DNA of 31,737 bases from Nanobdellota archaeon (GCA_038046385.1 JBBSWH010000016.1:1-31737), one strand, 5' to 3'; positions 1,499 through 31,737 are shown, counted from the stretch's first letter. Notes: a model not told the origin generated them from the letters alone. Numbers and translations are program-made.

Positions 1499-1726
1499 TC
1501 AGTAAAAAGGATACCTTCTAGAAGTATACTTATCAATTATAATAAAAAAGGGGCGCAAACTGCCGCGCCCTTCAAAGGAACACGGCAGCTGCGCAAATTG
1601 GGTCAAACCAAAAAATGTAAAAAATTTGGGAAATTTTTTATCATGCTCAAGAACCAATGGAATATCTTGCGATAAGCAAAATTCAAATATTCCATTAATT
1701 TGGTTCTTGACATGTGATTCTGTCAT
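1499..1726 (-). CDS. Possible small ORF or gene relic (75 aa)
   Basis: ATGA overlap with the stop of the 717-aa gene and a GGAG upstream. It runs through the putative terminator and has no clear motif. Confidence 0.2.
   Translation of the reverse strand: MTESHVKNQINGIFEFCLSQDIPLVLEHDKKFPKFFTFFGLTQFAQLPCSFEGRGSLRPFFIIIDKYTSRRYPFY
1544..1572 (-). terminator. GC hairpin followed by a U-tract, downstream of the giant-protein operon
   Basis: Minus strand reads AAGGGCGC-GGCAGTTT-GCGCCCCTTTTTT and lies between convergent genes. Confidence 0.45.
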
Positions 1727-2298
1727 GTCAGCTCCACGTAAAATGAAACAGTGTTGTCGTTGTCTGGAATGCGGTATGATTTCAGCCTTGCAGGAACCCT
1801 TACCTCATAGCTGTAATGCCCGTAAAATCCGGCTTTTCTTCCGCTTATTTTTGTGATAAACACTAAATCCTCTTTTTCTGCTGCGTCATATTCTTCATCA
1901 GAAGAATCAGACGAGTCCCACAGCACTCCCGTTATAAAATTTGATGAGTTTGTGGAATTTACAAAAGAAACATTCTCTATAATGCGCGAGGATACTGTAA
2001 AATTTTCAAAATCTCTCGCCGCGCCGTTCAGAGTGTATGTCTTGTTTATTGAATCATTGAGGTTTGTTGTTCCAAACAGCAAATCTATGTCCTCCCAGTC
2101 ATTTGATATTGTATTCAGCGACTTGTCTTTTCCTATTGCCAGAAGCGACGGCCATGAGATTCCGTTTTTTGTGTCGCTGTCAGTGGCGTAAATGTTGCCG
2201 TTAAGGTCAGTGGAGTTGGCCCACGCCATCATGCTTATGTTGTTGCGGGTTCCAAGCACTATATTTGAGAATATGTTGCCGTAGAATACATGGTACTG
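1723..2298 (-). repeat. C-terminal ~190-aa domain, copy in the 717-aa protein
   Basis: Aligns with 3873-4437: GNI..DSD...W, NSTN.SNFITG.LWD.SD, G.YG.Y..EV.VPARL..Y..P.NDN.V.FYVEL. Confidence 0.9.
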
Positions 2299-3876: not shown

Positions 3877-4437
3877 CTTAGCTCCACGTAGAACGTAACT
3901 GAATTGTCATTATTTGGCCTGATGTACTCCCTTAATCTTGCAGGCACTTTTACTTCAAAGTCATAGAACCCGTATTTTCCGTCTTTCAGCCGGTTTATTT
4001 GCGAAACAAATATCACGTCCTGGCTTCCGTTGAACTCTCCTGGATTAGCATCACTCTTGTCCCATAATATTCCGGTAATGAAATTTGAATTGTTGGTGCT
4101 GTTTGCAGTAGGGGTATTATTTATTGCCTGGGCAAATATGATCTGGGTTTGGACATCTTTTGGCCTGTTATTGAAAGTAAAAGTCCTGTTCAGTGAATCA
4201 GTCAAATTGGTCATGTTCATTGCAAGATCTAAATCTTCAAAGTCGTTTGTCACATTTCCGTCTGTAACATTGACACCCAGTGCAGAAATATTGGTCCAGA
4301 TTACATTGCTGTCAGAATCAACCACGAATATGTTTCCGGCTGTTGCATTGCTGACATCCCAACTGTATATTGTCTGGTTCGAAAGTCCGGCTATTATCAG
4401 GCTCCCAGTCAGGTTTCCGGTTACTGTGTTGTATGCG
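3873..4437 (-). repeat. C-terminal ~190-aa domain, copy in the giant protein
   Basis: Paralog of 1723-2298 with the same motifs. Confidence 0.9.
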
Positions 4438-22400: not shown

Positions 22401-22700
22401 CTGCAGTGATTCCTTTACAGTGCCATAAGAAGAATTAATGAGGCTTGCTTCATAGAATCCCTCATTTGTCGGGATAAAATTAAATTTTTTTTCATTTCCG
22501 ATATAAGTAAAAGTTGCTCCATTGGAAGAAATTTCCAGCTTCAAGCCGTCCATTGAAGAAACATTTAACTCAATCGGTATTTCTTCTCCCAAAGAATATT
22601 GAGATTTTTGCAAAGAAATAAGCGCGCTGGAGCTACTTAGAGTCAGCGCCATGGCTAATACTACTCCTAAAAGTACACTATATACCCAATTTGCTCTCAA
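3873..22700 (-). CDS. Giant Ig-like repeat surface protein / adhesin-like (6275 aa)
   Basis: Uninterrupted 18.8-kb ORF with a TTG start, GAGGGG RBS and signal peptide. MG2-like starts (TDKKSYKIGETV). About 30 ~100-aa Ig-like repeats, two DUF2341-like starts (WWNESWIRRKPI, FDSAWKYRIPI), two CARDB-like domains (PDVAI..NIG, PDLEI..NIG) and the C-terminal FYVEL domain. Confidence 0.92.
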   Translation of the reverse strand: MRANWVYSVLLGVVLAMALTLSSSSALISLQKSQYSLGEEIPIELNVSSMDGLKLEISSNGATFTYIGNEKKFNFIPTNEGFYEASLINSSYGTVKESLQFAVINPAELSVFTDKKSYKIGETVTIYIDSGYLNSTYNLSIKTGTDVFYFLGQLQNQLKFVPRSLGSYEVSLASTKSEAKTNFTVETFDPLKIKKSNVRITSEKKRYIIGESVELRLTLPKDSDLQFYIKSGQNVYKYFGVLGDRLTFFPKDVGDYYVAIEETGTVLASYSFSVAARPVLSAEKALGSVQYSFNINQDAVIEADFSDKITRNAAQIALQSTILEQVTAYVSKHEEDDDFSLGLEHVEFDRFRVTVASNANIKPGIYRLVIAGKYNKKIYKKEILFNWGLSDEIDFFNELKEKGNLLPSSITLDKSNYRLGEAITIKTNLSDVKIIFSGKTFTLSSGYVPELLFAPPFEGLYTVTAHDSNGNAAEQSFTVSGAAASEPFFSTEETQSKAEIGKAVKWKKTIKFRNRESDRVSMQVPIPKEVSSLEIFSDSWGLDSSITQHDDSNSILEFNDELLPFEEKEYTAEFETSAPEKRETLNSTPKTDETEIVVASNASVHYSNVLSYSDIDESNPKQVRIFWIVNGSEVDIVGMPEFNATLLDTNGNGLIDKVSWNVPRLSEQKFKIKIVKAIDVAIGSKDSGGNVVSAVYDIYADGILAESSGSGVSKLLNLTKKNDIVITPSGKHIKKIVINEISGFSDITASIGIDDVPSAKDTTKKWDKMYAIDPAINFTSGSITATASGKSLFKCKDWDFASQSCLGEWKYIMDITPGEDYTVQIDPNDPGFGESNITILNVQSYPTVGGEWIVQFNATGTADLYISASNGTEWSNTNQNYDLMFVELKCGATVMGYTWIDNGAQNSSVFIPNYNCSEISTERSKVITPGKHILRFEFGEGIAYANNFASFFVDTSNADFGDGIMHQTNLSGFGATANVTLNFTFLPGNMSGGIKKYTNFSGNFTSRIFNSTVNQTAYDKISWSRSLPNSSDVIGYATHGPADMAAVFYRNGSFGTDETAASYGAALDFTTALRRYTIPPDTSYSDILGLGFDGDSDVAYAFFQNGSTAADTSQADLTSDIDFLNGLNTWTIPPGFNVSNIIGFAIDTDNTGAAVFFNNGTFIEAAQEAAPFKFTTARVYTIPAGFNFKDMTGVDYHSGGNDITSFFKNVSRLSDNSQTGFTTDIAFATYFGTTYHAGFNITAYTNVTLYTRVSNNSITFTPWSTAYLNNSGIQGLTDDIGMYVQYRAVFKTPDPYVSPELENVTINYTSDIEVPVISGISPQDGSSPSNPITLSLSTDESATCRYNNSNSSFNFDIGGTLFSTTGGTSHSQSLGSLAEGSYIYFIKCRDAIGNTNDGNNQGNTTFIIDNVAPNVVNLTSPLNNSNISREFLNFTWLVVDNLDTIMTCNVTIDNQFVTNISSQNGTLSGYFTKIDEGPHLWNVTCVDRSGKVNASTVGRFQANFIRSIISIKTFNQSYKSNREVNLSPISRFISSDLEPDTRSTTTDVVLVNSTFDSDEEGFVYKDNLYQSATNSDGVDGTYVASGVGCFNAGSCLLVNIDLASTGPTSGGWNKSFTLTSYAWVDFYYYYNFTQEGSPDNNENSFVYMRNASSGSDVLIDTMLGPTPPIRYQGGPRVFNFTLSNGTDSLDVGAYMTDTSANDEDTRAWFDNIIIIARKMVQDNEGNTSFREYNTTSGQNFTKISDVKVLVEISYYNATGSVNANNDFPDLEVQLFNGTGYPYSNVCYLNQTYKSAGNFRYNCSMRITNSSILNTWNNSLNRKMRVRGIDLDNENDQNDTINWTGVFYTIEAPSKLENYGGSNISGRLIMQVFNSSGGLMQTVYNSSRLVQANSTTNISRLWAANIWNTEINPLGTYKAYVAFFNSSYNIMQNLDGTFLNDTFFFTLDYLRINVQSPLNNSVQDATGFWANASLSYISFPSGEYCEYEIDQNKKGLMVNSTLSATATESAGDYKNITSPDNRSIWYAGDQVSSPFEVSANFTITVTIDEFVRPEYLKNITFNITYCHAAKSGSNIRCSGTAATGTLEADQNVSIYNFSALKWASMGTLSTNSNGNLISNLYYPNGTLSNFINSSSGQIRLRIRPRMTNSVPGQSSYFILDFASIKLASGIPLANDTSTHFYNFTTAISEGQHNLTFYCNDTQGDLSNSNRIVFNTTDQTPPIVQVSLPVNNSEEIDGDITFAYNVSDAVSAIGNCTLEFQSVDNVSNSSITKNRNLSIAINGLDNGGPYFWRIKCVDNSTNRIMGNSSFLQFIVGQDTDVPAVILRNPIDGYNSTNNDVLFDFRVNDATSTIANCSLILNGKINKTNYTIIEQGFPFKYNNFTVYDVPDGVYNWSVNCTDTASAHNMGNSSTRRVNVTRDLDFPIVILINPSSESTDTDGVITFQYNVSDASSGISNCTLIVNNTMNTTISSPSEYQTLSFNPSAFNDGFYIWSVNCTDNSFALNKNNSETRNFTITRISGMGLKVATDNSVYQKGTQDTETAFVVLNTTDSLGNRLNSSITTNLIFQNTSLRWWNESWIRRKPIFLNETGNLGRRNDTITANITELGGYIQSCQNELRIIRNRSLMFAEVPFNVLDGDDSTWCYIRFPANISANARNENNYYAYYNYSGASNTNYAPIKLVRYLLFADDFETSNFASVWKADTGWSRVTTTSFPTGSAAAEAAGAVTNAQARPLNTTNLTGYDIVNLTFAYFISCLYDDNDDSLSFSMNNGTEWGENDSLVGQGTTSTCSGEENFWVIENKTLSSRMYVGNFTFRFNATADNNEDGWFDYVNITGYRFGSFNITASVGTEQVLINTTVNDTSADGGFNFNFNISNLTNGEYSLVSFAGAVSYNNATNFTLFRIVTDQTAPAVNIIRPLNNNISEVNDMLFVYNTSDALSGIANCTLLINSTLNESNTTILENARLNFTKFGLPNGLYRWTVNCTDDSSNRNTGTGGNRLFTIAVDTTNPVVTLRRPFNNYTDTNLNVSFNYTLSDDLTGTADCALYINGTLNATQDDISTTDGGTKIFNNVSLFNNGTYNWYVNCSDDSLSRNYNISEIFNFTALEDLEGPVITIFFPAEFYQDTTGNVSFIYNVSDLITNISRCTLSINDTRNQTNFSVAENRRVNFTVNDNLNGYFNWSINCTDTSENGNVATTVTRTFLSATDVDPPVVKLEFPPNNIELSNSTFTGINITFRYNVSDFASEINNCSLHINKSNSFILNATKKGILEDTSQNFTVNMSDGFYQWYVNCSDNSGNKNANISEIRNLTIGIDTTPPDVTLQSPSEGYNDTNGDLDFFYIANDVASNILNCSLIINNTQNITNNSITKLITQNFSMSGFNNGTYRWQVNCTDNSSRFNTANSSSRMFNVKLDVEPPIVQLVNPPNKTVDTDGNRTFFYNVSDTISELANCSLIINNNINRTNTTFVVEDRLQNFSVGGFNDGEYNWSVNCTDNSENLNKGESAFRNLTVINDNIGPVVTLLGPPDNYSDSNGNVTFNYTVSDAAAGISNCTLFAGSNTYVNRTIQEGVLQQFNITGLTTADRYWNITCADDSENGNLGASEKRNLSVLLDSSAPVVQLVSPVNFTQEIINNVTFFYNVSDSFPIKSCALILNGSLNQTNSSRVVQNTRLNFTAENMTSGVYGWSVNCTDSTEDFIVGSSLERIIIVGPDVVAPTISIIEPDNAIQDIDGNLTFKFNVTDFASGIANCSLVVNGTRNQTMFRPQEDAKLNFTLNDTGLGDYSWSVNCTDNSTNLNAGQSEFRNFTIGEDVTPPVTTLISPDNNSFINRADVTFQYTSADSSYSIANCTLILNDRANITNSTITELEANYFYLTNLPDGFYNWTVNCTDNSPKNNSELSEMFNFTIFAPRQIVADVYPNQTSYEQGKTALITVNTTNLSFSPFASDVYVNIIRGNTTAPFFDSAWKYRIPIEINSSNSPRKSALVETDLNFSRVLISDLGLTGKIFDSNSIRVIEWINNKSAEVPYQFVSGGSFSAASSAYGRLSWIMNGSTPNSTIRIYHVYFDITENGAKPAANYNSYYPNISLSGSKRSLYKNGVAASANYASISKATESLSIQFADGQDISNQQNINYQGAGSIWNMTVDGTQLSNYYDSIIPVAIYDNYYLTQNGTANITSGPVYTKIRIPGYLNGTSGTNAEVNYTIWFGDDEVFVKADLSVKFNQAVNDPQSLFNNLWFAYLFDYESDWSSYVRFVNSTSFDGVHRYHLPTSLSDTTNQFNDAEWYSEFNGQKGSVNLYVKNFLLNGASGTKGIISFDDYWNIPEPKTTESDGVGFNLNSDQTISASDTYSLTTYMVMSSNRTWKRALDLKDYADFPLNVTRKKAEKLVNDTASITDSAGLFSFNWSTINQAPGNYTATAIANKTLYRLGADFFVFVVSGDVTKPNVTSISPTGFTNTANITFVFNVTETNSIANCTIIINGRLNTTNYSITNNAQNSIKVFNLTEGFYNWSVNCTDGAGNIGASGLKNITVDLVEPGINLTGPQNGETFNHTDVHFNFTAFDNFDNITNCSVNIDGVASAFVNATNGTLTNVTIVVSQAVHAWNVTCSDDAGNTNISLARQFTVDLGPPTVTLDNPDNNTLSPINNLTLYYTPNDLSLVSCRLIINGVTNQTNTSPTSGTSNIFRLENRSESLVQWAVNCTDSNSNIGPSPTRNVYVDFSPPNVTLLNPASGFASTFSNVQLNFTARDNFASSLSCNLSINKTVNNSQILTVPNASLFMYNASGFNDGVFGWNATCYDGANNTNSSLTRTFSVSEAPSISLLFPINYTRDRVQNRNFTFTPLDNSGNISNCTLVLNNAINVTNSTIRNRLENNLTVTNLEHNQYNWTVNCTDPRGNTGTNLTSFILFVDLLGPSITLNLPTEGQSFNTDDITFNFTPTDQFGLSTGITCNLSLDGSVNVSGIRAISGSDNVTVIENLTQGQHRWNVTCYDNLNNTNSSAVGTFIVNSPDVAITSGNITFNSTNPYENEPIGVNATIFNIGGVAANNFTVQFYDQLALFGNVTVETLNFGRNTTVNATFNATRNFHSIFVVVDYARAELSKSNNNATNNLTLLLSEINSPLNDSWTRAQSSIINFSIYDFTNSTLNFTVYSNGIFNRTANITDNSSGVAELNLSEGINLVVVEANGPRIDIQGKDSGLFRKKNSTTLYINVDLTAPVTNFITANNSWFRDNTPEIFFNITDNMDAVINYTLYVNNTRNLTNLTQNGTLSSFNISLLGDGNYTLNIEALDEAGNRRNSSFIIIFVDTAAPFPSIMTLNNTNFSDATPEIRFNITDNLANLINYTFYVENSFNKAGNASNGIIRFDNLSSLTDGFRRVILEATDLAGNKANSTFINITIDTAPPVITISNPVEGHPYGYLISILADVADSGVGISNVRYSIFNDSYIYYKNGTLNASTGFDDLWNSTIDIDESVEFMIVNLSVTANDTLNNTATAVVRFIVDNKRPSITFYVPNGEDFNRNFSLNISIQNRNLTVAGWNITNSTDEFVLNGLNASIFSTSFSFFDQINLSNETMFPNGEYNITVFAIDEVGNNRTSYNRFRVDRSYPNVTLVFPHDRFNTTLSSLQFNFTANDNMDLYLNCNLTLDGAIVVQEINATNNTRTNVTYSELSEGYHLWNVTCEDNAGNFNTSLTRNFTVDTTVPTILLDRPLNNSFNGSSTVEFSYIPNDALLVISNCSLVLNGRINKTNYTITKGVSNNITATNLEENKYEWTINCTDSVGNTGTNDTLRVLYVDFTAPNITFITNNGTWYSDPTPDIYFNITDNFDRVLNYTVYADGVLENLSYAVNGTAIARNISALQNGTHRIIIETYDDAYNLRNSTNLTIIIDTALPNITLLGPLNESNLSILDLVFFFNATDNLDDELVCNLTIDSVVNISGFAANSTKNTSKSVSGFNTGFHNWSVTCKDNATNIFTSSVFYFNITPPDLEISSSDIYFNDSEIEENINITVFANITNIGRGPALNFIAQIFDGDPDANGIQIGSNFTLNLGIGEYRVINLSWGFGIGTTNVFVQIDRDSRITELIEINNKANKSLNVSAYNTVTGNLTGSLIIAGLSNQTIYSWDVSNATAGNIFVVDSDSNVIWTNISALGVNVTDGNVTNDFEDLDLAMNMTNLTDSLNRTFTFNNRPKDVQTQIIFAQAINNTPTANSTNNSNFITGILWDKSDANPGEFNGSQDVIFVSQINRLKDGKYGFYDFEVKVPARLREYIRPNNDNSVTFYVELR
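4770..18480 (-). repeat. Degenerate ~300-bp coding repeats (Ig-like domain with a Cys pair)
   Basis: About 23 copies (hand count) of D..P.V.L..P.N...F.YNV.D....NC.L.IN...W.VNC.D, interrupted by non-repeat modules. The DNA core CAGTGCAGTTnACGCTCCA recurs on the + strand. Confidence 0.85.
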
Positions 22701-22988: not shown

Positions 22989-25298
22989 TTAAATGATTAT
23001 TGTTAAGTTTCTAGAATCAATCAAAGTTCCGTTTCTTGCAGTTGTGTTTATGTTATAGATTCCTGCACTCGTGTAATTGTAGTCAATGTAAACAAATATT
23101 TTTTCATTAGGCTGCAGTATTATATTTGATGTTGCGTTTATTACGTTGCTGTTTCTTGTATCCAAAGTCCAGTTTACATTTGTAAGATTTGTTGAAAGTC
23201 CGTTTTCAATATCAAATCCGAATATCCTCTTGTTTCCTGATTCATTCAATACTGCAATATTGTTGATATTGATATAGTGCAATGTGACAGAAGCAGCTTT
23301 GATGCTTGAATGAGTTGAGCTTGCTACAACGGCTATGGGGTTATAAGTTCCGCCGCTTGCATAGTCATGCTGCACAAATATGAAAATAGTCTCTCCGGAT
23401 TGAAGATCAAACTGCTGGTTCGACAAGAGAATTGAATCTTTATTTGTGTCTATTGACCAGTTTATTCCGCTTATTGCTTCATCTGCAATATCTTTTGCAT
23501 GAATTTCAAAAATTGCTTTTGAAGCATCAACATTAACTGCATCAAAGCTTGTTATCAAAAGGTTTCCAATCTCAAGATTTTCCAGCATAGAACTCAATAT
23601 TTGATTGCCCTGGTTTATTCCGGTTGCGCTTGCGTTGATGCTATAGCTTCCATCGCCGCTGTAGCTGTATTGAACGTAAACAAATGCTTTTTCTCCTGCA
23701 TTTAACAAGCTTATGTTTGAAGTGCTGTTTATTATGTAATTGTCGCCAGTGTTGAACTGCCATTGGATATTTGATACAGTTGTATCGCCGTCGTTTAGAA
23801 TTGAGAATTCGAATATTCTTAAAGTGCTGTTAGCATAAATTGTGCTGATTGATTCTATGTTTAATGATACAATTTGCTCTTTTGTGTTCTGCGCTATGTT
23901 GTTGCTTTCATTGGATTCGTCAACTAGATTGTCAAAGTCTGCTATGGCCGTAATAAGAGATGCATTGCTACTGTTGGTTATATTAAATTCATAAATTATA
24001 CTTTCTCCATTGCTTATGAATGATGAACTGCCATTATTGTTGTATGTGGCGTTGTCAAATATGTCTAAAAATATGTTAAAAGCAGGAGCTTGCCCGATAT
24101 TTGATAAATTGATGGTTATATTTGTCGTATTTGTTGTGTCATCAAAATTAATGCTTATATTTAGGTGTAAATCAGGCAAGGGGGGCCTTTCATAATCTGT
24201 ATAGGCGTTTTGGCTCGTGGTGTAGGCATTGAAAAGTATATCTTCTGTTTCAGCTCCAACCGCCAATTTTGCAAAGCTTACGAGATAAGGCCCGTTTATT
24301 TTAGTTTTGTATATTTCTGAGCCGTTGATTAGGGTTTGAACTGTATTATCACCTATCGACAAAGCTTGCGTCTTGTTTATGCTTATGACAAAATTATCAA
24401 ATTCATCATACAGATCATAAGTTAGATTATAAGTTTCTGTGCTGAAAGAATTTACTGTAAAATTTATTTCCAAGAATTCAGAAAGATTGTTGTTGTTTGT
24501 ATCGATTCTAGTGTCAGTTATAGACTTAATGTAAGTGGTCTTTGCAAAATCTTCATAGTTGTAGATTGAAGTATTTTTATTGATGTAGAAAATCTTATCC
24601 CCTACAACCATAGTTTCTATAGTGAAGTTTCCATGATGGTGTGTCGATTTAATAGTTTCATTGTCAAAATCCAATCCAAATATATTAAGACCAGGTCCTA
24701 GCAATTTTTCTTCCGTTCTTGAGATAGTGCTAGAATTATACCTAAGAGTGATAGTAACGTTAACAGTGGCAGTCTTCGTATAGTTGAGATATGGCCCTAC
24801 CCTTAACCAATTGTTGTCTATATTTGCATCTGACATTTGAATTACGCTAGAACCATTTTCATATCCTTTATATTTGTTAGTTTGTGTTTTGTACTGCCTA
24901 TAAACTAACTCATTGTTCAAGTCGGTTATTTCCACAGTATAATTAAAAAAATTCCCCAAAAGAAGCTCTGTTGGAAAATTTGTTTGGATTGAATCAGAAC
25001 TACTAAAAGTTTTAGTTGTCACATTTATGTAAAAGTTGTTGGAATCAACTAATTTTACTATGAAGTTAAATGATCCAGAACCGGAGCTTGTGAGGTTTAT
25101 AACTAATGTATCGTTTAATCCGTTTGAATTGCCATCAAACATATAATCATTAGAACTAATGATGCTTATAGAGCCATTATAATAAGAATAGTTAAAGGAG
25201 TCAATGAGATCGTTAATTGACATATTGCTAGCTAAAGCTAAAGATGACAAAATCATTATCATAAATATATAACTTATTGCTAGCTTGCTTTTATTCAT
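22989..25298 (-). CDS. Secreted CARDB/Ig-like glycoprotein (769 aa)
   Basis: Signal peptide. Two DxDxDG-like loops (DGNSNGLND, DTNNNNLSE). CARDB-like PDL...NIG...DFDNLVDESNESNN. Three C-terminal repeats (IF.F.I.N...N..W..[DN]T...L..GE..F.[YF]...Y...G.Y). GGAG RBS. Confidence 0.85.
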   Translation of the reverse strand: MNKSKLAISYIFMIMILSSLALASNMSINDLIDSFNYSYYNGSISIISSNDYMFDGNSNGLNDTLVINLTSSGSGSFNFIVKLVDSNNFYINVTTKTFSSSDSIQTNFPTELLLGNFFNYTVEITDLNNELVYRQYKTQTNKYKGYENGSSVIQMSDANIDNNWLRVGPYLNYTKTATVNVTITLRYNSSTISRTEEKLLGPGLNIFGLDFDNETIKSTHHHGNFTIETMVVGDKIFYINKNTSIYNYEDFAKTTYIKSITDTRIDTNNNNLSEFLEINFTVNSFSTETYNLTYDLYDEFDNFVISINKTQALSIGDNTVQTLINGSEIYKTKINGPYLVSFAKLAVGAETEDILFNAYTTSQNAYTDYERPPLPDLHLNISINFDDTTNTTNITINLSNIGQAPAFNIFLDIFDNATYNNNGSSSFISNGESIIYEFNITNSSNASLITAIADFDNLVDESNESNNIAQNTKEQIVSLNIESISTIYANSTLRIFEFSILNDGDTTVSNIQWQFNTGDNYIINSTSNISLLNAGEKAFVYVQYSYSGDGSYSINASATGINQGNQILSSMLENLEIGNLLITSFDAVNVDASKAIFEIHAKDIADEAISGINWSIDTNKDSILLSNQQFDLQSGETIFIFVQHDYASGGTYNPIAVVASSTHSSIKAASVTLHYININNIAVLNESGNKRIFGFDIENGLSTNLTNVNWTLDTRNSNVINATSNIILQPNEKIFVYIDYNYTSAGIYNINTTARNGTLIDSRNLTIII

Positions 25299-25611
25299 GC
25301 AGTTCTCCGTCTAATAATTGATCCCATATAGTGTAGTTCGGACATGTGTCACACTCTATTTGTGGTCCGCCATTAAGTTCAATTGTCCAGACATCATAGC
25401 CTTCTTTAACCAAATCACTGCCAAGGCCATCCTCAAATGTGAATAAATCGCTAAATATGCCTCCGCCCATAACGACTGGTTTTGGGTCATTAATTATTAT
25501 ATCTTTAAAATTGTCAGAGTGGTCTGAATTGAGATTCTTTAATCTCAAAGTCGTATTCTGCCCGTAGGATGTTCCGTTTGTCTTCTGGACTGTTTTTATG
25601 GCAATACTCAT
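25291..25611 (-). pseudogene. Truncated third copy of the alpha/beta-hydrolase module (106 aa, lacks GHSNG)
   Basis: Near-identical to the start of the hydrolase domain of the S8 protein up to ECDTCP.YT, then stops before the nucleophile elbow. Confidence 0.75.
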
Positions 25612-25612
25612 T

Positions 25613-26167
25613 TTAACCTCCTGTCGAAAGACCGTAGAGTAGGCTCATTATATTAATTATTATCAGTATAAAATAATTCAAAAACAAAAAAGATATAACC
25701 ATAATAGCTATAATCAAATACTTATTTAGTAAGTTCTCATTTTTTCTAAAAGATTTATCTTTATTATATCCCAAAATCAATGCTACTGCTAATATAATTG
25801 CTAATCCTAAATAATTTGCAGCTACTAAGAAATTGTTTGGAATTTCCATTGGCCTTATTTGTGGATTGTCTGATACTTTAACAAAACTAGGACCCAATAA
25901 ACCGCCCAGAATTCCAGACAATAAGTGGAATGCTATTGTTCCAGTAATCAACAAAGTAATCATAATCTTAAAACCATTTGTTATTTCACTATATTCCCTA
26001 ATCTTAGAATTTTTAAGAGATATGAACAACAATAAAGAGATTATTCCTAATTCCAAGAAAAATTGCCATGGGAATATCCCAAAAGTAATTATTGAATTGA
26101 AGCTAGTCGCATATGTTATGAAATATACAATTCCAAAAAAATAGAGTAAATTTATTTTTTTATTCAT
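25613..26167 (-). CDS. 5-TM membrane protein, partner/immunity candidate for hydrolase copy 2
   Basis: Five hydrophobic segments. The ATG at 26167 follows GGTGA-TTAAA, so it is preferred to the GTG at 26176. Shares H...LGP..V...DN...PNN[FY]L...N with 27160-27693. Confidence 0.8.
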   Translation of the reverse strand: MNKKINLLYFFGIVYFITYATSFNSIITFGIFPWQFFLELGIISLLLFISLKNSKIREYSEITNGFKIMITLLITGTIAFHLLSGILGGLLGPSFVKVSDNPQIRPMEIPNNFLVAANYLGLAIILAVALILGYNKDKSFRKNENLLNKYLIIAIMVISFLFLNYFILIIINIMSLLYGLSTGG

Positions 26168-26168
26168 T

Positions 26169-27158
26169 TTAATCACCTTTTAATCTATCTTTTACATCAT
26201 TTTTTACTTTTGGATTGTTTTTAATAGAAACATGGTTAACAAATTCCAAACTCAAAATATTTGTTGTGTAAGGTATTCCCTGCTCATTTTGGGAATCTAA
26301 ATTTGAGCTATTTAAAATTCTAGGTTGATCATTAAAAGGTACAATAAAATCTGAATCATACCCGTTAAATAAATACAATTTACTTACATTGATATTGCTT
26401 ACATCAAACACAGAATCATTATTGATTGCTAAGGTGTTATAAAATTTCATTACATTTCTTGACATAGCTGCATCATTGTCAAAATATAACGTTATTGGGG
26501 AAAAGTATCTTGCATAATCCTTTAAGAAAATATGTTTTTTCCCTGCAGTCTTGTTAATAGCATACTCTCCTAATTTTAAAGGTGCAGTTACATCCTTTGA
26601 TCGTGCTATGGTCGTATATAAATTTTCATCATTCAGCGTAGCAGGACAAGCTATCCCAAAAAACTTGTCAACTGGTCGTTGAGGCAAATCCACTAAAGTG
26701 TCATACAACCCGGTCTGAGTGTTAAACACGTAACCAGCATTGTTCTTGCCATTGGAATAAGAATTCAGAGACGACAAAGCAACACGGCAGCCATTGCTAT
26801 GCCCGATATAATTTACCTGATTTTTATTTGAATAATCCATAACTCCGGCAATTAGAACAGGCCAGTAATAATCAGCTAAGTCCTGATAGATATAGTTGGG
26901 GCACGTAGGACATTCGATTTGTGGCCCACCCGTAAGTTCAATTTCCCAAACATCGTGACCTTCTTTTACTAAATCTTGTCCTAAACCTTCTTCAAAGTAG
27001 AACAAATCATTAAACAATCCACCACTCATAACAACTGGTTTAGGAGTGTTAAGAATGACATCCTTAAATGTTGGTGAGAAATCAGAATTTAAATTCTTCA
27101 ATCTTAATGTTGTGTTCTTCCCATAGGAAGCATAATTTGTAGTTTGGTATGTCTTCAT
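26169..27158 (-). CDS. Stand-alone alpha/beta-hydrolase (lipase/esterase-like), paralog of the S8 protein C-terminus (329 aa)
   Basis: GHSNG nucleophile elbow (Ser 26796-26798), candidate Asp in LFNGYDSDFIV and candidate His in VNHVSI. No signal peptide. Confidence 0.85.
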   Translation of the reverse strand: MKTYQTTNYASYGKNTTLRLKNLNSDFSPTFKDVILNTPKPVVMSGGLFNDLFYFEEGLGQDLVKEGHDVWEIELTGGPQIECPTCPNYIYQDLADYYWPVLIAGVMDYSNKNQVNYIGHSNGCRVALSSLNSYSNGKNNAGYVFNTQTGLYDTLVDLPQRPVDKFFGIACPATLNDENLYTTIARSKDVTAPLKLGEYAINKTAGKKHIFLKDYARYFSPITLYFDNDAAMSRNVMKFYNTLAINNDSVFDVSNINVSKLYLFNGYDSDFIVPFNDQPRILNSSNLDSQNEQGIPYTTNILSLEFVNHVSIKNNPKVKNDVKDRLKGD

Positions 27159-27159
27159 T

Positions 27160-27693
27160 TCACCAATACCTCGCTAATAATAAAATATTCAAAATAGGGG
27201 TTATTATCACATTACACACAATTAATATTAATTGAAATTTGAAAAAATCAAAATAAACATTAAAATCATCAATTTTCCATCTCTTTAAAAAACCACCAAT
27301 TATAAGTGGTGCTATGATCCAAAATAGGATAAACAATAAATTAATCTTTATTAAATAGTTATTTGGACTAACTAGTGTAGTATTATCATCCAGTTCAACT
27401 CTAGTGGGTCCTAACTTAGCATCTGCAATTGTAGTAAAAATATGAATAAGTATAGTAAAAGTAAGTAGCGTTAACAGAAAATTTCTAAAGTTAAATATTA
27501 ACTTTTTTTTAACTTTAAACTTTATTTTTCTGCTTAAATAAATAAATAATGTTAAATCAATAAAAAAAAAGATTACCCATCGGTACGCGCTTGCCCATAA
27601 TCCAAATTTAGTCCCTTCTAAAATTGTAATAAAACCTACGGAATATGATGCGAAATAACTTAATATTAATGATACTAACAATTTGTTGTCCAT
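27160..27693 (-). CDS. 5-TM membrane protein, partner/immunity candidate for hydrolase copy 1 (177 aa)
   Basis: Five hydrophobic segments, very AT-rich, AGGAGG RBS. Paralog of 25613-26167. Confidence 0.8.
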   Translation of the reverse strand: MDNKLLVSLILSYFASYSVGFITILEGTKFGLWASAYRWVIFFFIDLTLFIYLSRKIKFKVKKKLIFNFRNFLLTLLTFTILIHIFTTIADAKLGPTRVELDDNTTLVSPNNYLIKINLLFILFWIIAPLIIGGFLKRWKIDDFNVYFDFFKFQLILIVCNVIITPILNILLLARYW

Positions 27694-27697
27694 TTTT

Positions 27698-30600
27698 TTA
27701 CCTCCTAAGTCTAGTTTTAATATCTTCTTTAACGTCAGTATTATCTTTTATAAATCCATGACTTTCAAACGTTGCAATACTATTATAAACTAATCTTTCT
27801 TTATTTCCAGAAGTTAATGTAGAGCTGTTTATTATCCTACTACCATCGTTTGAATGAACTAACAAATCAGTTGGATATCCGTTGAAAAGATATATTTTAC
27901 TAACGTTTACCATACTTACATCAAAAATTGAATTTTCATCAATGGCTAAATCGTTATAGAATTGCATTAAATTTCTGGAAATACTTTTATCTTCAAATAC
28001 TGCAGAGATAGTTGTTAAATCCCCTATTATGTCTGCTCCAAATTCTACAAGTCTCCATGCATAATTGAACTTGGTTATATGGGTTTTACCACTTTGGTTT
28101 ACCTTATTCATTGCATAATTGCCATTTATAAAAGAATTATATAAAATTCTCCTTCTAGTTAAGTTTATAAGACTCGTATTATCATTCAGCGTAGCAGGGC
28201 AAGCTATCCCAAAGAACTTATCCACTGGACTACTTGGCAAATCCACTAAGGTATCATACAACCCAGTTTCTGTATTGAAAATGTACCCTGCATTATTCTT
28301 TCCGTTTGAATATGAATTTAAAGATGATAATGCAACTCTGCACCCATTAGAATGCCCTATATAATTAACTTGGTTTTTATTTGAATATTCCATAACTCCT
28401 GAAACAAGTGCAGGCCAATAATAATCAACCTGATCCTGATAAGTGTAATCCGGACAAGTATCGCATTCAATCTGTGGTCCGCCATTAAGTTCAATAGTCC
28501 ACACATCGTAGCCCTCTTTTACTAAATCGCCACCTAATCCGTCTTCAAAAGTAAATAAGTCGCTAAATATTCCGCCTGACATAACTACTGGCTTTGGATT
28601 GTTTAATATTACATCCTTAAAAGTCGGAGAGAAATCAGAATTTAAATTCTTCAATCTTAATGTTGTATTTTGCCCATACGAGGTCGTATCTAAGGTCTGA
28701 ACTGTTTTTATAGCAATCTCATAGTTATTGTCCAGAAGAATTTTCTCTATAACGCTTTTGAAATTGTTTGTTTTTTTATTATAATGAAGTTGATTATCAT
28801 GGTTATGCATTATATCCATCACAGACAATCCAGTTAGGTCATGAGAATCAATAACTATTGTGTGAGAATATAACTCTGCATTGTTCTTTTGATAAGAATC
28901 CGGATTGAAAAACTCATTTTTGGCTGAAATCAGTTTTTTCACGGCTGCTACATCGCCTTCTATATATTTTCCATAAGCAAAAATGTAAACTTTGTTGTTG
29001 TATATAAAACTGCCAACCAAGCCTAAATCAATTGGTGTTTTTCTGTTCACTATAGGTGTACTGGAAGACTTATCCACATACCATCCAAAATTTCTTTTTG
29101 TATAATCATTTAAGGAATTTACTTTTGATGAATTTCTGCTTATAGATATGATTATATTTGAATTGGATTCCTCGACCCGTTGAACAAACAATTTCAAATA
29201 TCCCCTGATTGCCTCATCCGCTTTAGAATTTCCAGTATTTATGTCCAAGTAAGCCTTTTCCTTAATTTTAACAAAAGGCACTATGACATAATTGTCAGTT
29301 TCTGTAACCTCTTTAATGTTATCTTTTACATCGACATATACATGGAAATAGTCAACATTTGAAGTGTCGATGCTTATCAAGGAGTTATATTGAGTAATTG
29401 ATGAACTGGTTATAGTTTCAATGCTGCTTGCTTCTTTTGTAACCAATCCGGTGCTTTTATCTTGACCTTTTATTGTTACATTAAAACTGCCAGCTACGTT
29501 TTCGTTGTTAATTGTTATATTAAACTGATAATTGTTTCCAGATACTTGTTTATAATCAATATCTGCAAGGGAAATCTCTAAATTTTTATTATTATTGCAG
29601 ATATTACAATTAAAAACTAAGCTATCATTGTCTCCATTGAAGTCGATTGAAGCGGTTTTTGATTCGCAAACTTTTGATTGATTAGTCTTGCATGTTACAT
29701 TAATTGTCTGGCTGACTCCGCATTCCACACCTAAGTCAACCTGTTTGGTGCCGCCAGTATTTGTCGTTCCATTCAAAACTCCATTAACATAAACATAATA
29801 TCCTGCAAAATTTGTTTCTTTATTATTACTCACTCCAACGTTTAACCCACCGTTGCAGGTTGACACTGGAGATGTGCACGGATTAGGGACAGTTCCAGAC
29901 GAACTCGTTATAATTTGATTATCTAAACTCGTGTCACAAGTAGTTGAGCAAGAAGCGCTTTTATAATTAATCCATTGAGTTGAGCTGTATCTTCCTTCAT
30001 AATGGTAGCTCGCCCCCGTGTCGCAAATTGCTCTTTTAGCGTCTATAATATAATAAAATGGGTCATTGGAATCATCAAAATCTTGCTGCTCAACAGAATT
30101 ATCACAGTCGGTGTAGTCTGTGATTTCTACCTGCCCTTGTCCTCGAGAATCTGTCGTTAATGGTTCATTGTGAGGGACACCGACGGCACAAGATGACGAG
30201 TTTAAACATCTTTCATAAAACTTAGCTTTGTCACTCCCACCAACACCTTCAGAACTAAAAGTGTTGCATTGAGTCAGCTTTCCTGCCTTGTGATAGCATC
30301 TTTCTGGATTATCATTGCCATCATCGTCAAAGCACTCTGCGTCTCTTTCGCTATTTGGGTTGGATATATTATATGTTAAGACACCATCTTCCCAAACTAC
30401 GGCATCATTGGTAGAGCTTCCTTCTCCTAAATAATTATCTGTAAATCCTATTGATGTTATTCCTAGTATGATTAATGTACCGTTCTCGCTAACATTGTAA
30501 ATTTTTGATTTCTTAATCCCATCAAAAGTAAAGTTAACCAAGTAGTATCCTTCCTCAAAACGAACATCATCAATAGTCCCAGCCCCGTTCAGCCAGAACT

Positions 30601-31737
30601 TATAGGTGATATTTGACACTCCATAATTTGATATATTGAATATTTCGTAGAAATATGACAAATTCACAAGAGTATAATTTGTTGTATACAAATTAGCCTG
30701 CACCAAGCCAAATCCGTAATAATCGTCTTTACCGGAACTTCCCAAATCCGAAGCATCATTCTGCATCTTGCCTCTTATCTGATTATTAGTTAAAGAATTA
30801 TTATGGGATTTAATCAATGCAGCAACGCCTGCAACATGCGGAGCAGCAAGAGAAGTGCCGGAAAATAAAGAATATCCATTATTCAGCCATGTTGTATTGA
30901 TATTAACGCCATCAGCAACCAATTCCTGCTCAAATCCGTAAGAAGAAAAAGAAGCTAAATTGCCAGAAGAATCGACTGCCCCGACAGCAACAACAGAAGA
31001 GTATCTTGCAGGATACAATATATTATCCTGCCCGTTGTTGCCTGAGGCAGCTATTAATAACATATTGCGGTTGTAAGCATCATCCAAAACTTCCTTGAAT
31101 ATCTGCGAATAAGTTTCCATTCCAAAGCTCATCAAAACTATTGACATATTGTTGTCAATAGCCCATTCAACGCCTGAAATTGCATCAGAAAGCGAGCCAA
31201 CTGAATTATTCATTATCTTGACAGCATAAACGGAAGCAGAAGGCGCAACTCCAGCATTGCCATAATCATTCAATACAGATGAAACAATGCCGGCAACAGC
31301 CGTTCCGTGTCCATTATTGTCGGTAAAATTACTGCCAATAACAGAAACACCGCCGGCAATATTTAAGTCACTATGCGATGAAACTCCTGTGTCAAGAATC
31401 CCAATTTTAACTCCATTGCCTTTTGTAAAATTCCAAGCGTTCAAAGCATTAGTTTTTACAATATTCTGTTGTACAACATCAGAATAATTATTATAATAAT
31501 CTAGAACAGAAGTTTTTTGGTCTAACTCAATATAGGATACGGAATTATCATTTAAAAGTGCTTCAATATCTTTCACTTTGCCGGTTACTTTTACAGCATT
31601 GAAGCGATTATATTCTTTCTCTGTTTTAAACTTGCCAAGCTTTGAATTATCGATTCCATCTTTAAACTTCACAATAAATATGTTTTGCTCGTTTTTGTCT
31701 GCTTTCTCTAGATATTTTTCTGTTTTTACATTTAATT
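27698..31737 (-). CDS. Subtilisin-family (S8) serine protease fused to a C-terminal alpha/beta-hydrolase; 5'-truncated by the window
   Basis: The frame stays open beyond the GTG at 31672 to the window edge (..LNVKTEKYLEKADKNEQNIFIVKFKD, I9-prodomain-like). Triad: ILDTG (31391), NGHGT (31307), GTSLAAPHVAG (30851); oxyanion AASGN. Then a Cys-rich region, a CARDB-like domain and the GHSNG hydrolase (Ser 28349-28351). Confidence 0.92.
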   Translation of the reverse strand, partial: LNVKTEKYLEKADKNEQNIFIVKFKDGIDNSKLGKFKTEKEYNRFNAVKVTGKVKDIEALLNDNSVSYIELDQKTSVLDYYNNYSDVVQQNIVKTNALNAWNFTKGNGVKIGILDTGVSSHSDLNIAGGVSVIGSNFTDNNGHGTAVAGIVSSVLNDYGNAGVAPSASVYAVKIMNNSVGSLSDAISGVEWAIDNNMSIVLMSFGMETYSQIFKEVLDDAYNRNMLLIAASGNNGQDNILYPARYSSVVAVGAVDSSGNLASFSSYGFEQELVADGVNINTTWLNNGYSLFSGTSLAAPHVAGVAALIKSHNNSLTNNQIRGKMQNDASDLGSSGKDDYYGFGLVQANLYTTNYTLVNLSYFYEIFNISNYGVSNITYKFWLNGAGTIDDVRFEEGYYLVNFTFDGIKKSKIYNVSENGTLIILGITSIGFTDNYLGEGSSTNDAVVWEDGVLTYNISNPNSERDAECFDDDGNDNPERCYHKAGKLTQCNTFSSEGVGGSDKAKFYERCLNSSSCAVGVPHNEPLTTDSRGQGQVEITDYTDCDNSVEQQDFDDSNDPFYYIIDAKRAICDTGASYHYEGRYSSTQWINYKSASCSTTCDTSLDNQIITSSSGTVPNPCTSPVSTCNGGLNVGVSNNKETNFAGYYVYVNGVLNGTTNTGGTKQVDLGVECGVSQTINVTCKTNQSKVCESKTASIDFNGDNDSLVFNCNICNNNKNLEISLADIDYKQVSGNNYQFNITINNENVAGSFNVTIKGQDKSTGLVTKEASSIETITSSSITQYNSLISIDTSNVDYFHVYVDVKDNIKEVTETDNYVIVPFVKIKEKAYLDINTGNSKADEAIRGYLKLFVQRVEESNSNIIISISRNSSKVNSLNDYTKRNFGWYVDKSSSTPIVNRKTPIDLGLVGSFIYNNKVYIFAYGKYIEGDVAAVKKLISAKNEFFNPDSYQKNNAELYSHTIVIDSHDLTGLSVMDIMHNHDNQLHYNKKTNNFKSVIEKILLDNNYEIAIKTVQTLDTTSYGQNTTLRLKNLNSDFSPTFKDVILNNPKPVVMSGGIFSDLFTFEDGLGGDLVKEGYDVWTIELNGGPQIECDTCPDYTYQDQVDYYWPALVSGVMEYSNKNQVNYIGHSNGCRVALSSLNSYSNGKNNAGYIFNTETGLYDTLVDLPSSPVDKFFGIACPATLNDNTSLINLTRRRILYNSFINGNYAMNKVNQSGKTHITKFNYAWRLVEFGADIIGDLTTISAVFEDKSISRNLMQFYNDLAIDENSIFDVSMVNVSKIYLFNGYPTDLLVHSNDGSRIINSSTLTSGNKERLVYNSIATFESHGFIKDNTDVKEDIKTRLRR
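28181..28722 (-). repeat. Conserved hydrolase N-half, repeated at 26628-27158 and partly at 25330-25611
   Basis: Direct repeat. 28629-28666 and 27076-27113 are identical over 38 bp. By hand alignment, copies 1 and 2 differ at 22 of 163 aa with no gaps. Confidence 0.95.

Follow-up and report, generated by a model that had tools for sequence, protein, structure and literature searches.

We conclude, with a probability of roughly 0.55, that an array of hydrolase and membrane-protein genes in the DNA studied here belongs to a polymorphic lipase-effector/immunity system of Woesearchaeota-like (DPANN) archaea. The window is the complete 31,737-nt contig C16 from the genome of a small groundwater Nanobdellota archaeon, a metagenome bin that is 85% complete. 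What such a system exchanges is, as far as alignments, trees and recombination scars can tell, the back half of one hydrolase family together with the membrane gene, and not a whole warhead as the first-pass annotation had supposed. A wider claim, that DPANN archaea which have lost ether lipids and adopted bacterial-type ester membranes wage lineage-wide lipid warfare by swapping half an enzyme along with a membrane-embedded plug for its active site, is advanced here tentatively and at less than even odds.

The array was confirmed, with every part of the order proposed earlier (S8 protease-hydrolase, TM gene, orphan, TM gene, relic) recovered (Table 1). All its genes lie on the minus strand, and the stop and start codons of consecutive genes abut or overlap throughout. 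The carrier gene runs off the edge of the contig, all of which is in the window, and so lacks its 5' end. Its S8 domain is recognized both by profile and by Asp115, His143 and Ser295 motifs. The Cys-rich region averages 30% identity among eight carriers of the genus and is 23% identical to that of the paralogue on contig C14, although the S8 parts of these two proteins are 86% identical. The stalk is common to carriers with different front ends. No Pfam name was found for its domain of about 200 aa preceding the hydrolase, which we presumptively call 'S-layer-like', a working label to which we give no value as evidence. The nucleophile of the carrier hydrolase, Ser1129 at position 28351, lies within a GHSNG motif.

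Table 1. Features of the array, from the carrier downstream; positions count from the first letter of the window.
Feature	Position	Strand	Description
Carrier	27698..31735	-	1345 aa; 5' end missing (contig edge)
Carrier domain order			pro-domain, S8 protease, Cys-rich variable region, Ig/CARDB-like stalk, alpha/beta domain, C-terminal serine hydrolase
S8 protease domain	30707..31420	-	carrier residues 106-343; Pfam Peptidase_S8, E 3e-51
Cys-rich second variable region	29924..30475	-	carrier residues 421-604
Conserved stalk	28727..29923	-	Ig/CARDB-like domains and a domain of about 200 aa
Hydrolase front half	28196..28717	-	conserved; oxyanion loop, CxxC motif, nucleophile, as far as the ACP motif
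Hydrolase back half	27698..28195	-	variable, putative exchanged part; cap, Asp1290, His1326
TM1	27160..27693	-	177 aa; 4-5 membrane segments; predicted to inhibit its cognate carrier hydrolase
Orphan hydrolase	26169..27158	-	329 aa; 63% identical to the carrier hydrolase
TM2	25613..26176	-	184-187 aa; TM1 paralogue, predicted inhibitor of the orphan's variant
Relic	25291..25611	-	97 codons of hydrolase front half, 84% identical
Ig/CARDB/PKD protein	22989..25298	-	769 aa, secreted; conserved downstream flank

The orphan starts at the equivalent of carrier residue 1009, has no hydrophobic leader and retains an intact triad (Ser121, Asp270, His309), matching its earlier description as a signal-less duplicate of the hydrolase only; it is 83% identical to the carrier hydrolase in the front half and 46% in the back half. 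The relic, the truncated third duplicate of that description, starts near carrier residue 1007, stops short of the nucleophile and is coupled in frame to both neighbours. The common start of the duplicates remarked on by the first-pass annotation thus holds here, but it is particular to this locus, as relatives' orphans start anywhere between the Ig domains and mid-hydrolase. TM1 and TM2 are indeed divergent paralogues (31% identity, z 13.8, a score reached by 0/300 shuffles); each shows the five membrane segments ascribed to it at three looser settings and only four hydrophobic segments at the strict one. The family of the Ig/CARDB/PKD protein closes many arrays (48 fetched loci, not de-duplicated). 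The same genome carries a second array on C14 and a third carrier on C1, and it has five hydrolases and six membrane proteins of this system in all.

Across the hydrolase family, a membrane gene of 77-225 aa stands directly behind the hydrolase in 133/139 distinct members, against a genome background of 27/464, which agrees with the expectation that homologues would have an adjacent TM gene. The gap between the two is within 20 nt in 130 of these 133. Co-inheritance of back half and membrane gene is also expected from adjacency alone. Depending on the threshold, the partners form 33 to 76 mutually unrelated families, one lipoprotein-like protein being among them, and adjacent cassettes often have unrelated partners. 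A profile of TM1/TM2 recovered only these two among 3546 scored candidates, an iterated local profile found no further member, and an Atlas search gave feature scores below 0.9 and no structure match with a TM by query above 0.48. Some loci have a second membrane gene (11 in all, at least two of which look like spurious frames and two of which are one identical sequence), and the one on C1 is a homologue of another hydrolase's partner.

The hydrolase combines an alpha/beta serine hydrolase fold (structure model pLDDT 88) with a Ser-Asp-His triad, whose alignment columns hold Ser in 69/73 sequences (four are cut short), Asp in 73/73 and His in 72/73. Its closest fold match is gastric lipase 1k8q (Z 25.3, rmsd 3.8, 279 aligned), and its best profile matches are acid lipases (E 1.5e-7 to 7.5e-6), over the nucleophile half. 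Acid lipases (gastric 1k8q/1hlg, lysosomal 6v7n) likewise have a cap inserted after the nucleophile half, but identity with them is just 13-16%, their substrate is not transferable, and, unlike the archaeal family, they have neither a partner gene nor cassette arrays. The fold match in second place is a PHA synthase, PhaC (Z 23.1), so the substrate cannot be read from the fold. A first hydrolase model, built from five sequences, was poor (pLDDT 59.5) and gave generic hydrolase matches only.

We modelled the complex of one relative's hydrolase with its membrane protein, which is of another family than TM1/TM2. The pair scored 0.84 and the best control 0.01; the score mark for complexes is reached by 116/157 solved pairs and 2/215 mismatched pairs, and close cousins can also pass it. 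Runs agreed in at least 85% of contacts, with a partner pLDDT of at least 86. The modelled interface has 28 enzyme residues, 21 of them in the back half, and takes in the oxyanion loop as well as Ser110 and His265. A membrane-protein loop lying on the catalytic Ser and His in the model points to an inhibitor, and by extension from this pair we predict that TM1 and TM2 are cognate inhibitors of the window hydrolases.

Judging from the alignments, the conserved front half of the hydrolase is the homology anchor. Identity collapses past the ACP motif (front/back 99/47% and 96/38%, and 87/43% for the window against locus L004), and pairs with the reverse pattern, more alike in the back half than in the front, also exist. 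Trees of the two halves conflict at 15/25 supported splits, compared with 4/27 in an odd/even-column control. AU tests (p 1.6e-5, 3.7e-39) set each half against the best tree for that half, a comparison that leans towards rejection; we therefore relied on the split-conflict control. A sequence shares its membrane family with its nearest neighbour in 85/100 cases by back half and 59/100 by front half, and at tighter thresholds in 67 versus 39 of 79 and 61 versus 38 of 67. Scars were also present: in 5/131 downstream regions, the tail of another family's membrane gene lies right behind the present stop codon, a sixth initial match (23 nt) having been dropped as chance. Mosaics, tree conflict and scars together indicate replacement of the C-terminus and its partner by recombination on a constant body. 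An unrelated warhead was found in 0/25 stalk loci, of which 21 run into the same hydrolase, three end at contig edges and one is a relic; similarly, none of 51 homologues has an unrelated tip, 50 of them having both hydrolase halves and the remaining one ending early. A DNA motif common to the cassette junctions would have pointed to a site-specific recombinase, and none was seen by eye or in the part of the pairwise blastn output that was listed. This genome, at 85% completeness, yielded neither DprA nor ComEC.

Distribution of the system is patchy, with carriers in 24/43 genus genomes and 28/251 order genomes. Cassette number varies, as had been anticipated: ten genus loci have from zero to at least three orphans each, and a terminal relic is present in 9/10 comparable genus loci, while among 35 complete loci an orphan or relic occurs in nine and neither in 26. 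The label of S8 carrier fits the window but not the family, in which front ends may be S8, FG-GAP or beta-helix. Most full-length relatives have hydrophobic leaders; the window carrier's own leader lies off the contig. No relatives were found in plasmids or viral contigs, and no RNA holder of the locus was listed. In the literature searched, which took in neither subscription journals nor the 2019 paper of Makarova et al. and its supplement, no description of this hydrolase family was found.

That the array arose in assembly or binning is extremely improbable, even with an incomplete bin and a carrier cut at a contig end that C16 and C14 have in common (55 identical nt), beyond which a shared 5' piece of 2.1 kb appears to be missing. 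The window copies are just 70-78% identical as DNA, and similar arrays occur in many other records. Moreover, run X3, from another sample, contains one 4206-base piece with zero differing letters that leads from the downstream gene through the relic and TM2 into most of the orphan, and the next X3 piece bridges TM1 and the carrier hydrolase; the entire array is not spanned by any single piece, the break sitting on a 38-nt exact repeat. Because these pieces are identical and bridging, we do not regard the array as an assembly artefact, a concern that the first-pass annotation had raised. Synonymous sites of the window copies are saturated and their longest exact match is 38 nt. Recombinant carrier/orphan joints, which had been proposed as a check, were not listed in any of four runs; these consist of contigs, from which rare variants drop out. 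On this sequence evidence, the window cassettes are old copies that have diverged and show no trace of ongoing exchange.

GGGP synthase was above cut-off in 0/43 genus genomes, and PF01553 acyltransferases were present in 39/43. In this genome two plsC-like genes and gpsA are consecutive, the PlsC-like proteins clearing the Pfam cut-off and failing that of TIGR00530; an AMP-binding (acyl-CoA-synthetase-like) protein is also encoded, and no ether-lipid enzymes were found. The genus thus appears, from gene content, to have bacterial-type ester-lipid enzymes and no ether-lipid synthesis. Across the order sample, GpsA occurs in 11/28 carrier genomes and 48/223 non-carriers, a weak co-occurrence to which no statistical test was applied because the genomes are related. 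With GGGP synthase in none of the genus genomes and bacterial-type acyltransferases in most, the objection that ether lipids would resist such an enzyme weakens. That objection had led the first-pass annotation to consider a docking rather than an immunity role for the membrane protein; the gene content of the genus and the active-site-covering model both speak against it.

In the effector/immunity reading, an exported and probably surface-held carrier, whose export is suggested by relatives' leaders, would present an acid-lipase-fold serine hydrolase at the end of an Ig stalk, and the enzyme would most likely attack the membranes of cells in contact, cutting their fatty-acyl ester lipids. The outward loop of the small membrane protein, modelled for the relative's pair, would cover the active site in the window's pairs as well, a self-protection that would be needed because the lineage itself, by its gene content, probably has ester lipids. 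Other strains or species would supply new variants through crossovers in the conserved front half, with back half and membrane gene arriving jointly, as mosaics and scars indicate. Displaced versions would persist downstream as orphans, relics and spare membrane genes, and spare genes retained in this way may leave the cell immune to older variants. Competing kin are the presumed main targets, perhaps where they share a host surface. If this is true, the many small membrane proteins, unrelated to one another, would add a new group to the natural inhibitors of serine hydrolases. On the wider and less probable claim of lipid warfare after a change of membrane type, the arrays would also testify indirectly, at the genetic level, to ester membranes and to conflict between cells in uncultured archaea. 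New specificity would arise by an unusual route, intra-enzyme recombination that draws the triad halves from different donors. The system also bears on the composition of Woesearchaeota membranes and on whether these archaea have bacterial hosts, since immunity to a lipase would be pointless in a producer that has no ester lipids. The family supplies more than 130 natural enzyme-partner pairs, testable in laboratory E. coli or as purified proteins with no need to culture the archaeon.

The same genes might serve feeding on a host, an unlikely reading that is compatible with ours. A lipase with a self-protecting inhibitor would strip fatty acids or lysolipids from a bacterial host for re-acylation onto glycerol-3-phosphate, and variation would reflect host lipids or host inhibitors, not kin war. 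This genome's GpsA, two acyltransferases and AMP-binding protein, alongside the ether-lipid enzymes not found, would suit such a life, as would the majority of loci being single pairs, the S8, FG-GAP and beta-helix front ends typical of surface enzymes and adhesins, and the bacterial hosts proposed for Woesearchaeota in the excerpted text of PMC8204110. However, self-protection alone leaves unexplained the dozens of unrelated inhibitor families, the spare inhibitors that lack their enzyme and the wholesale swap of enzyme half plus inhibitor, and the patchy distribution also argues against host feeding.

Kin recognition or adhesion, in which a variable tip, serving as a self/non-self tag, would bind a corresponding membrane receptor of like cells and catalysis would be secondary, is improbable: the triad is retained in essentially all units, orphans included, and the modelled contact sits over catalytic residues, although the binding model would suit a receptor as well as an inhibitor and VARTIG of Thermococcales, as excerpted, has the same layout (PMC8416519). 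We regard it as quite improbable that the arrays are debris of tandem duplication in which the membrane protein serves an ordinary surface esterase as its dedicated chaperone, anchor or activator. Strict adjacency and translational coupling would fit such a partner, and TM1/TM2 paralogy would fit an old local duplication; yet chaperones are normally conserved, whereas here partners belong to many unrelated families and often differ between neighbouring cassettes, and the scars speak of replacement between lineages. Lipase foldases are comparable dedicated partners of lipases.

Little is known of the weapons that archaea use on one another, and next to nothing where DPANN lineages without cultures are concerned. 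The Tle phospholipase effectors of the T6SS are GxSxG serine hydrolases with adjacent, outward-facing Tli immunity proteins, and the archaeal hydrolase also has a GxSxG motif and an adjacent, outward-facing partner. Unlike Tle proteins, it is fused to its own exported stalk and not injected, and its fold is closest to gastric/lysosomal lipase. We do not place it in a Tle family, given that the window hydrolase scored 17.2 bits (E 0.004) with the Tle3 profile, below the cut-off of 27, and that 2/53 alignment members matched (best E 0.003). No VgrG/PAAR-type gene was noticed among the genes listed beside this genome's three loci, and no Rhs, FhaB or T5SS/T6SS/T7SS markers were among the Pfam matches. 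Makarova et al. (mBio, 2019) reportedly predicted that archaea have loci for contact-dependent toxins with immunity genes alongside. To judge by passages citing that work, the adjacency resembles that of the lipase arrays, and one citing paper names DNase and RNase domains as the most frequent toxin tips in archaea.

Polymorphic toxin systems (Rhs, CdiA, MafB), as defined in the excerpted text of Zhang et al. 2012 (PMC3482391), have a long exported carrier, toxin-then-immunity order, headless cassettes with 5' homology and strings of spare immunity genes, and lipase-like alpha/beta hydrolases are among their listed toxin domains. Gene order, cassette number, mosaics, scars and extra membrane genes bear out the likeness that the first-pass annotation had drawn, with the corrections given above: we found a multi-domain carrier, exported by prediction, with a C-terminal enzyme, a downstream partner and variable headless cassettes, and no unrelated toxin domains on the same carrier. 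In contrast to the bacterial systems, just one catalytic family was found at the tip, and crossover falls within the enzyme, separating the nucleophile from the Asp/His half; front ends differ among carriers, most partners are small integral membrane proteins, and the host is a DPANN archaeon. Compared by layout, the arrays also resemble VARTIG, a long Ig-domain protein whose hypervariable C-terminus is swapped among species and which is accompanied by shorter homologues downstream and by matched membrane genes (excerpted text of PMC8416519). They fall outside the VARTIG class (arCOG07710, variable terminal Ig domain, Thermococcales), as the terminal domain is a hydrolase and the carriers are not from Thermococcales; the excerpted text identifies no toxin or enzyme domain in VARTIG, whereas here the tip is an intact hydrolase with a partner modelled on its active site.

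The first-pass annotation had read one end of the window as a protease-hydrolase carrier followed by a membrane gene, an orphan hydrolase, a second membrane gene and a relic, and we confirmed this gene layout. The window makes up all of contig C16, in a genome bin of 1.28 Mb that is 85% complete. The S8 domain of the carrier (E 3e-51) has all three catalytic motifs, and the carrier's C-terminus is the hydrolase. The small membrane proteins TM1 and TM2 are paralogs (31% identity, z 13.8) with four to five hydrophobic segments, depending on settings. In run X3, which comes from another sample but the same study as the two possible source runs, pieces without a differing letter bridged two stretches, one from the downstream gene to the orphan hydrolase, the other from TM1 to the carrier. 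We conclude that the array is real.

Genes of the array and the gene that follows it, in window coordinates
Feature	Position	Strand	Content
Carrier, 5'-open	27698-31735	minus	S8 domain, then terminal hydrolase
TM1	27160-27693	minus	membrane gene
Orphan hydrolase	26169-27158	minus	
TM2	25613-26176	minus	membrane gene
Relic	25291-25611	minus	
Ig/CARDB/PKD protein	22989-25298	minus	769 aa

Directly behind the S8 domain lies a second hypervariable region, rich in Cys (29924-30475; 23% identity to the paralog on contig C14), possibly a target-binding domain. Further along, positions 3873-22700 encode a secreted 6275-aa protein of Ig-like repeats, whose last 190 residues share 40% identity with the C-terminus of the next gene product (1723-3876, 717 aa), which suggests a common anchoring or export domain. 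Seven contigs (C2, C7, C12, C14, C16, C17 and C18) have in common a terminal repeat of ~55 nt, which in the window occupies positions 1-58; two overlapping low-GC plus-strand genes beside it (176-1488; 240 and 202 aa) matched no Pfam family above the cut-off.

A structure model of residues 726-1345 (53 sequences, pLDDT 88) gave gastric lipase as its top fold match (1k8q; Z 25.3, rmsd 3.8, 279 aligned) and PhaC as its second (Z 23.1), and the best solved-structure matches of the hydrolase profile were acid lipases (E 1.5e-7). The catalytic triad is intact: across 73 units, Asp was present in all 73, His in 72 and Ser in 69, the other four being cut short. There is good support for an active serine hydrolase, whose substrate would be a lipid. 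Membership among the Tle effectors was rejected by profile.

The membrane gene next to the hydrolase proved to be a feature of the homologs as well. From 172 hydrolase genes with complete 3' ends (relatives' loci plus the window), 149 remained after near-duplicate removal, and 139 of these had at least 400 nt downstream, the other 10 being dropped. A gene of 77-225 aa with at least two membrane segments came next in 133 of the 139, within 20 nt in 130, compared to a background of 27 membrane genes behind 464 long ORFs in this genome. Of the remaining six, four had nothing comparable downstream, one was followed by a lipoprotein-like gene, and in one the membrane part was joined to a long gene. 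These partners formed 33, 64 or 76 families, depending on the threshold; at the loose setting the largest had 69 members and was probably chained. The search detected no homologs of TM1 or TM2 beyond each other. At locus L028 (1052-1456; identical protein in L131), a lipoprotein-like 135-aa protein replaces the integral membrane protein in the partner position; bacterial Tli proteins are also lipoprotein-like. From position 4339 of locus L058 onward, a membrane partner is fused to a downstream protein of the 769-aa family, giving 1486 aa.

Within the hydrolase, identity falls sharply just behind the ACP motif (about residue 1180), separating a conserved front half with the nucleophile from a variable back half with the cap, Asp and His. 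The two halves were 99 and 47% identical between two cassettes of one complete genome, 96 and 38% between two genomes, and 87 and 43% between the window and locus L004. Other pairs had the reverse pattern: their stalks differ, and their back halves are alike. Different C-termini on one type of S8 carrier, which the first-pass annotation had named as support, occurred in the genus: across eight carriers, identity was 60-87% in the S8 part and 15-35% in the back half, and one relative matched the window carrier at 58-73% over six segments and at 21% over the last. Trees built separately for each half from 108 sequences had 14 of 105 splits in common, compared to 43 of 105 in an odd/even-column control, and supported splits conflicted in 15 of 25 cases, compared to 4 of 27.

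Partner families track the back half. The nearest neighbor had the same partner family in 85 of 100 cases by back half and in 59 of 100 by front half, and back halves at least 60% identical came with the same family in 37 of 40 pairs. Outside the largest family, front-half identity reached 80% or more in 16 pairs, 12 of which combined diverged back halves with unrelated partners. Scars were left in 5 of 131 downstream regions (at least two events), where a 37-60 nt tail of another family's membrane gene sits directly past the present stop codon; in the three cases compared, the flank beyond it was 83-93% identical to loci retaining the old family. The position of the scar and the origin of its flank thus indicate that the incoming piece ends where the membrane gene ends. 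We conclude that the back half is exchanged together with its partner. Extra homologous membrane genes were clear in two cases among 11 flagged of 117, namely one further locus and contig C1, whose second membrane gene is a close homolog of another hydrolase's partner; Zhang et al. 2012 (PMC3482391) regard such strings of spare immunity genes as marks left by replacement.

Cassette number varied, as predicted. Ten comparable genus loci held zero to at least three orphans, and nine had a terminal relic; several of them are the same DNA as GTDB loci, so that the two sets are non-independent. Among 35 complete GTDB loci, orphans or relics occurred in only 9 (6 of 10 S8-type, 3 of 25 others). Orphans start at many different points, most without leaders, and at one other locus the anchors are nearly identical (87% DNA identity over 1.2 kb). 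In the window, comparisons among carrier, orphan and relic show saturation at synonymous sites (front-half pS 0.75-0.87) with the protein conserved, and the longest exact match between copies is 38 nt, which argues that these copies are old displaced variants rather than a currently used reservoir. The proposal of swappable cassettes thus holds for back halves and partners exchanged between lineages; the window's own copies give no hint of ongoing exchange. VARTIG membership of the array was rejected, but the window copies are VARTIG-like in this respect: VARTIG exchange has been observed from species to species and not inside a locus (PMC8416519).

The same genome carries further loci. Contig C14 starts with a second array of S8 carrier, membrane gene (146 aa), orphan (588 aa), membrane gene (95 aa) and relic (212 aa), closed by a homolog of the 769-aa protein, and on C1 lies a third carrier, with FG-GAP as its front end and accompanied by two membrane genes. 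The carrier ends of C14 (1-55) and C16 (31683-31737) are identical over 55 nt, where a 2101-nt X3 piece of about twofold depth attaches; beyond the identical 5' nucleotides, their S8 DNA is 83% identical. This suggests that both loci share one collapsed, probably identical 5' segment, the product of recent duplication or gene conversion. Such a collapse would explain why the window carrier lacks a leader and why the bin lacks the gene found upstream of many relatives' S8 carriers. That gene encodes an unnamed secreted protein of 430-500 aa (L019:727-2124 and relatives), variable at its N-terminus and conserved over its C-terminal 230 aa; Pfam and NCBIfam scans of the members scanned gave no matches.

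Because TM1 and TM2 lack an alignment, we folded the pair of a relative's locus, L042 (301 and 80 residues, 23-row alignments). The complex scored 0.84, compared to 0.01 for the best of three controls. The mark used for comparison was reached by 116 of the 157 solved complexes and by 2 of the 215 mismatched pairs. Runs were in agreement on at least 85% of contacts, and partner pLDDT was at least 86. In the model, a Cys28-Cys34 loop and the following helix of the partner contact the oxyanion loop, Ser110, residues beside Asp235, His265 and the cap, and 21 of 28 enzyme interface residues fall in the back half. This predicted geometry is that of an inhibitor, and would explain why back half and partner travel together; the L042 partner belongs to a different family than TM1/TM2, and the model does not bear on cognate specificity.

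The first-pass annotation had held ether lipids against an immunity role, as they resist esterases. For the genus this objection loses force: GGGP synthase was above cut-off in 0 of 43 genomes, and acyltransferases, mostly tandem, were present in 39. Across the order sample, GGGP synthase was found in 1 of 28 genomes carrying the hydrolase and 3 of 251 overall, but only 11 of the 28 had GpsA versus 48 of 223 others (hand count; the 48 and the 251 include unpublished genomes G147, G166, G211, G233 and G235). Ester membranes are therefore plausible for the genus and open beyond it. PF01884 (GGGP synthase), HMG-CoA reductase and UbiA were not found in the 85%-complete genome studied here. Its GpsA passes two NCBIfam subfamily cut-offs and stands in a row with two tandem PF01553 (PlsC-family) acyltransferases (G000:C6:173868-176101; L177:7869-10102), near radA-like and ribosomal-protein genes named by reading their sequences. 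CDP-alcohol transferases, an AMP-binding enzyme and a weak CTP-transferase match are also present. The row is a candidate bacterial-type phospholipid pathway in an archaeon and merits separate study; earlier publications (PMC8204110 and PMC6431249) describe a bacterial G3P dehydrogenase in Woesearchaeota, the possibility of bacterial hosts, and PlsC in DPANN.

In their genomic layout, the hydrolase-partner loci share four defining features with polymorphic toxin systems, in keeping with the proposed effector/immunity arrangement in an archaeon, and would work in the same mode. Unlike in those systems, no unrelated tips emerged: a stalk-only search (Ig/CARDB-like body plus ~200-aa domain) returned 25 loci, a count that omits one from an unpublished genome, with 21 hydrolases, 3 cut ends and 1 relic. 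The idea of a swappable warhead thus survives as exchange of back half and partner rather than of a whole warhead. We conclude that these loci are a real, widespread variant of polymorphic effector-immunity loci, apparently undescribed; no description was found in the literature searched, and Makarova et al. 2019 with its supplement, outside that search, may include the family.

We favor conflict among kin, at a probability of roughly 0.55. The carrier would be exported and displayed on the surface, where its hydrolase tip may act on lipid and damage neighboring cells; the partner, as modeled, would sit on the active site, and retained partners would be of value to the cell. The S8 domain may serve to mature the tip or to set it free, or may simply be a second surface enzyme. 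Feeding on a host, with the partner giving self-protection, is a rather unlikely alternative, yet one compatible with kin conflict, the membrane protein being an inhibitor under both.

A search with residues 820-1345 returned 51 proteins, whose front ends were of S8, FG-GAP/VCBS, beta-helix, CARDB or unnamed type; one protein was labeled Parcubacteria and one Methanococcoides (labels taken as given), and the hydrolase profile matched 337 clusters at 50% identity. By title, 50 of 65 GTDB loci were Woesearchaeota, Pacearchaeota, Nanoarchaeota/Nanoarchaeia or "archaeon", 15 were "uncultured Methanosarcinales archaeon" and none was bacterial; these titles lead us to assign the window to Woesearchaeota-like archaea. 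The family was present in 24 of 43 genus genomes and, in the order sample, in 28 of 251. Most carriers lack the S8 domain, and most full-length carriers have a hydrophobic leader at their start. In several S8 carriers a K/R-G-Q/E motif precedes this leader (P0003, P0004, P0007, P0022, P0032, P0034, P0042; L016-, L032- and L043-type). Such leaders look like class III (pilin-type) signal peptides, which hints that the carriers are tethered to the membrane or displayed in connection with pili. A secreted 454-aa member at L067:9404-10765, with neither stalk nor partner gene, is possibly an ancestral stand-alone esterase.
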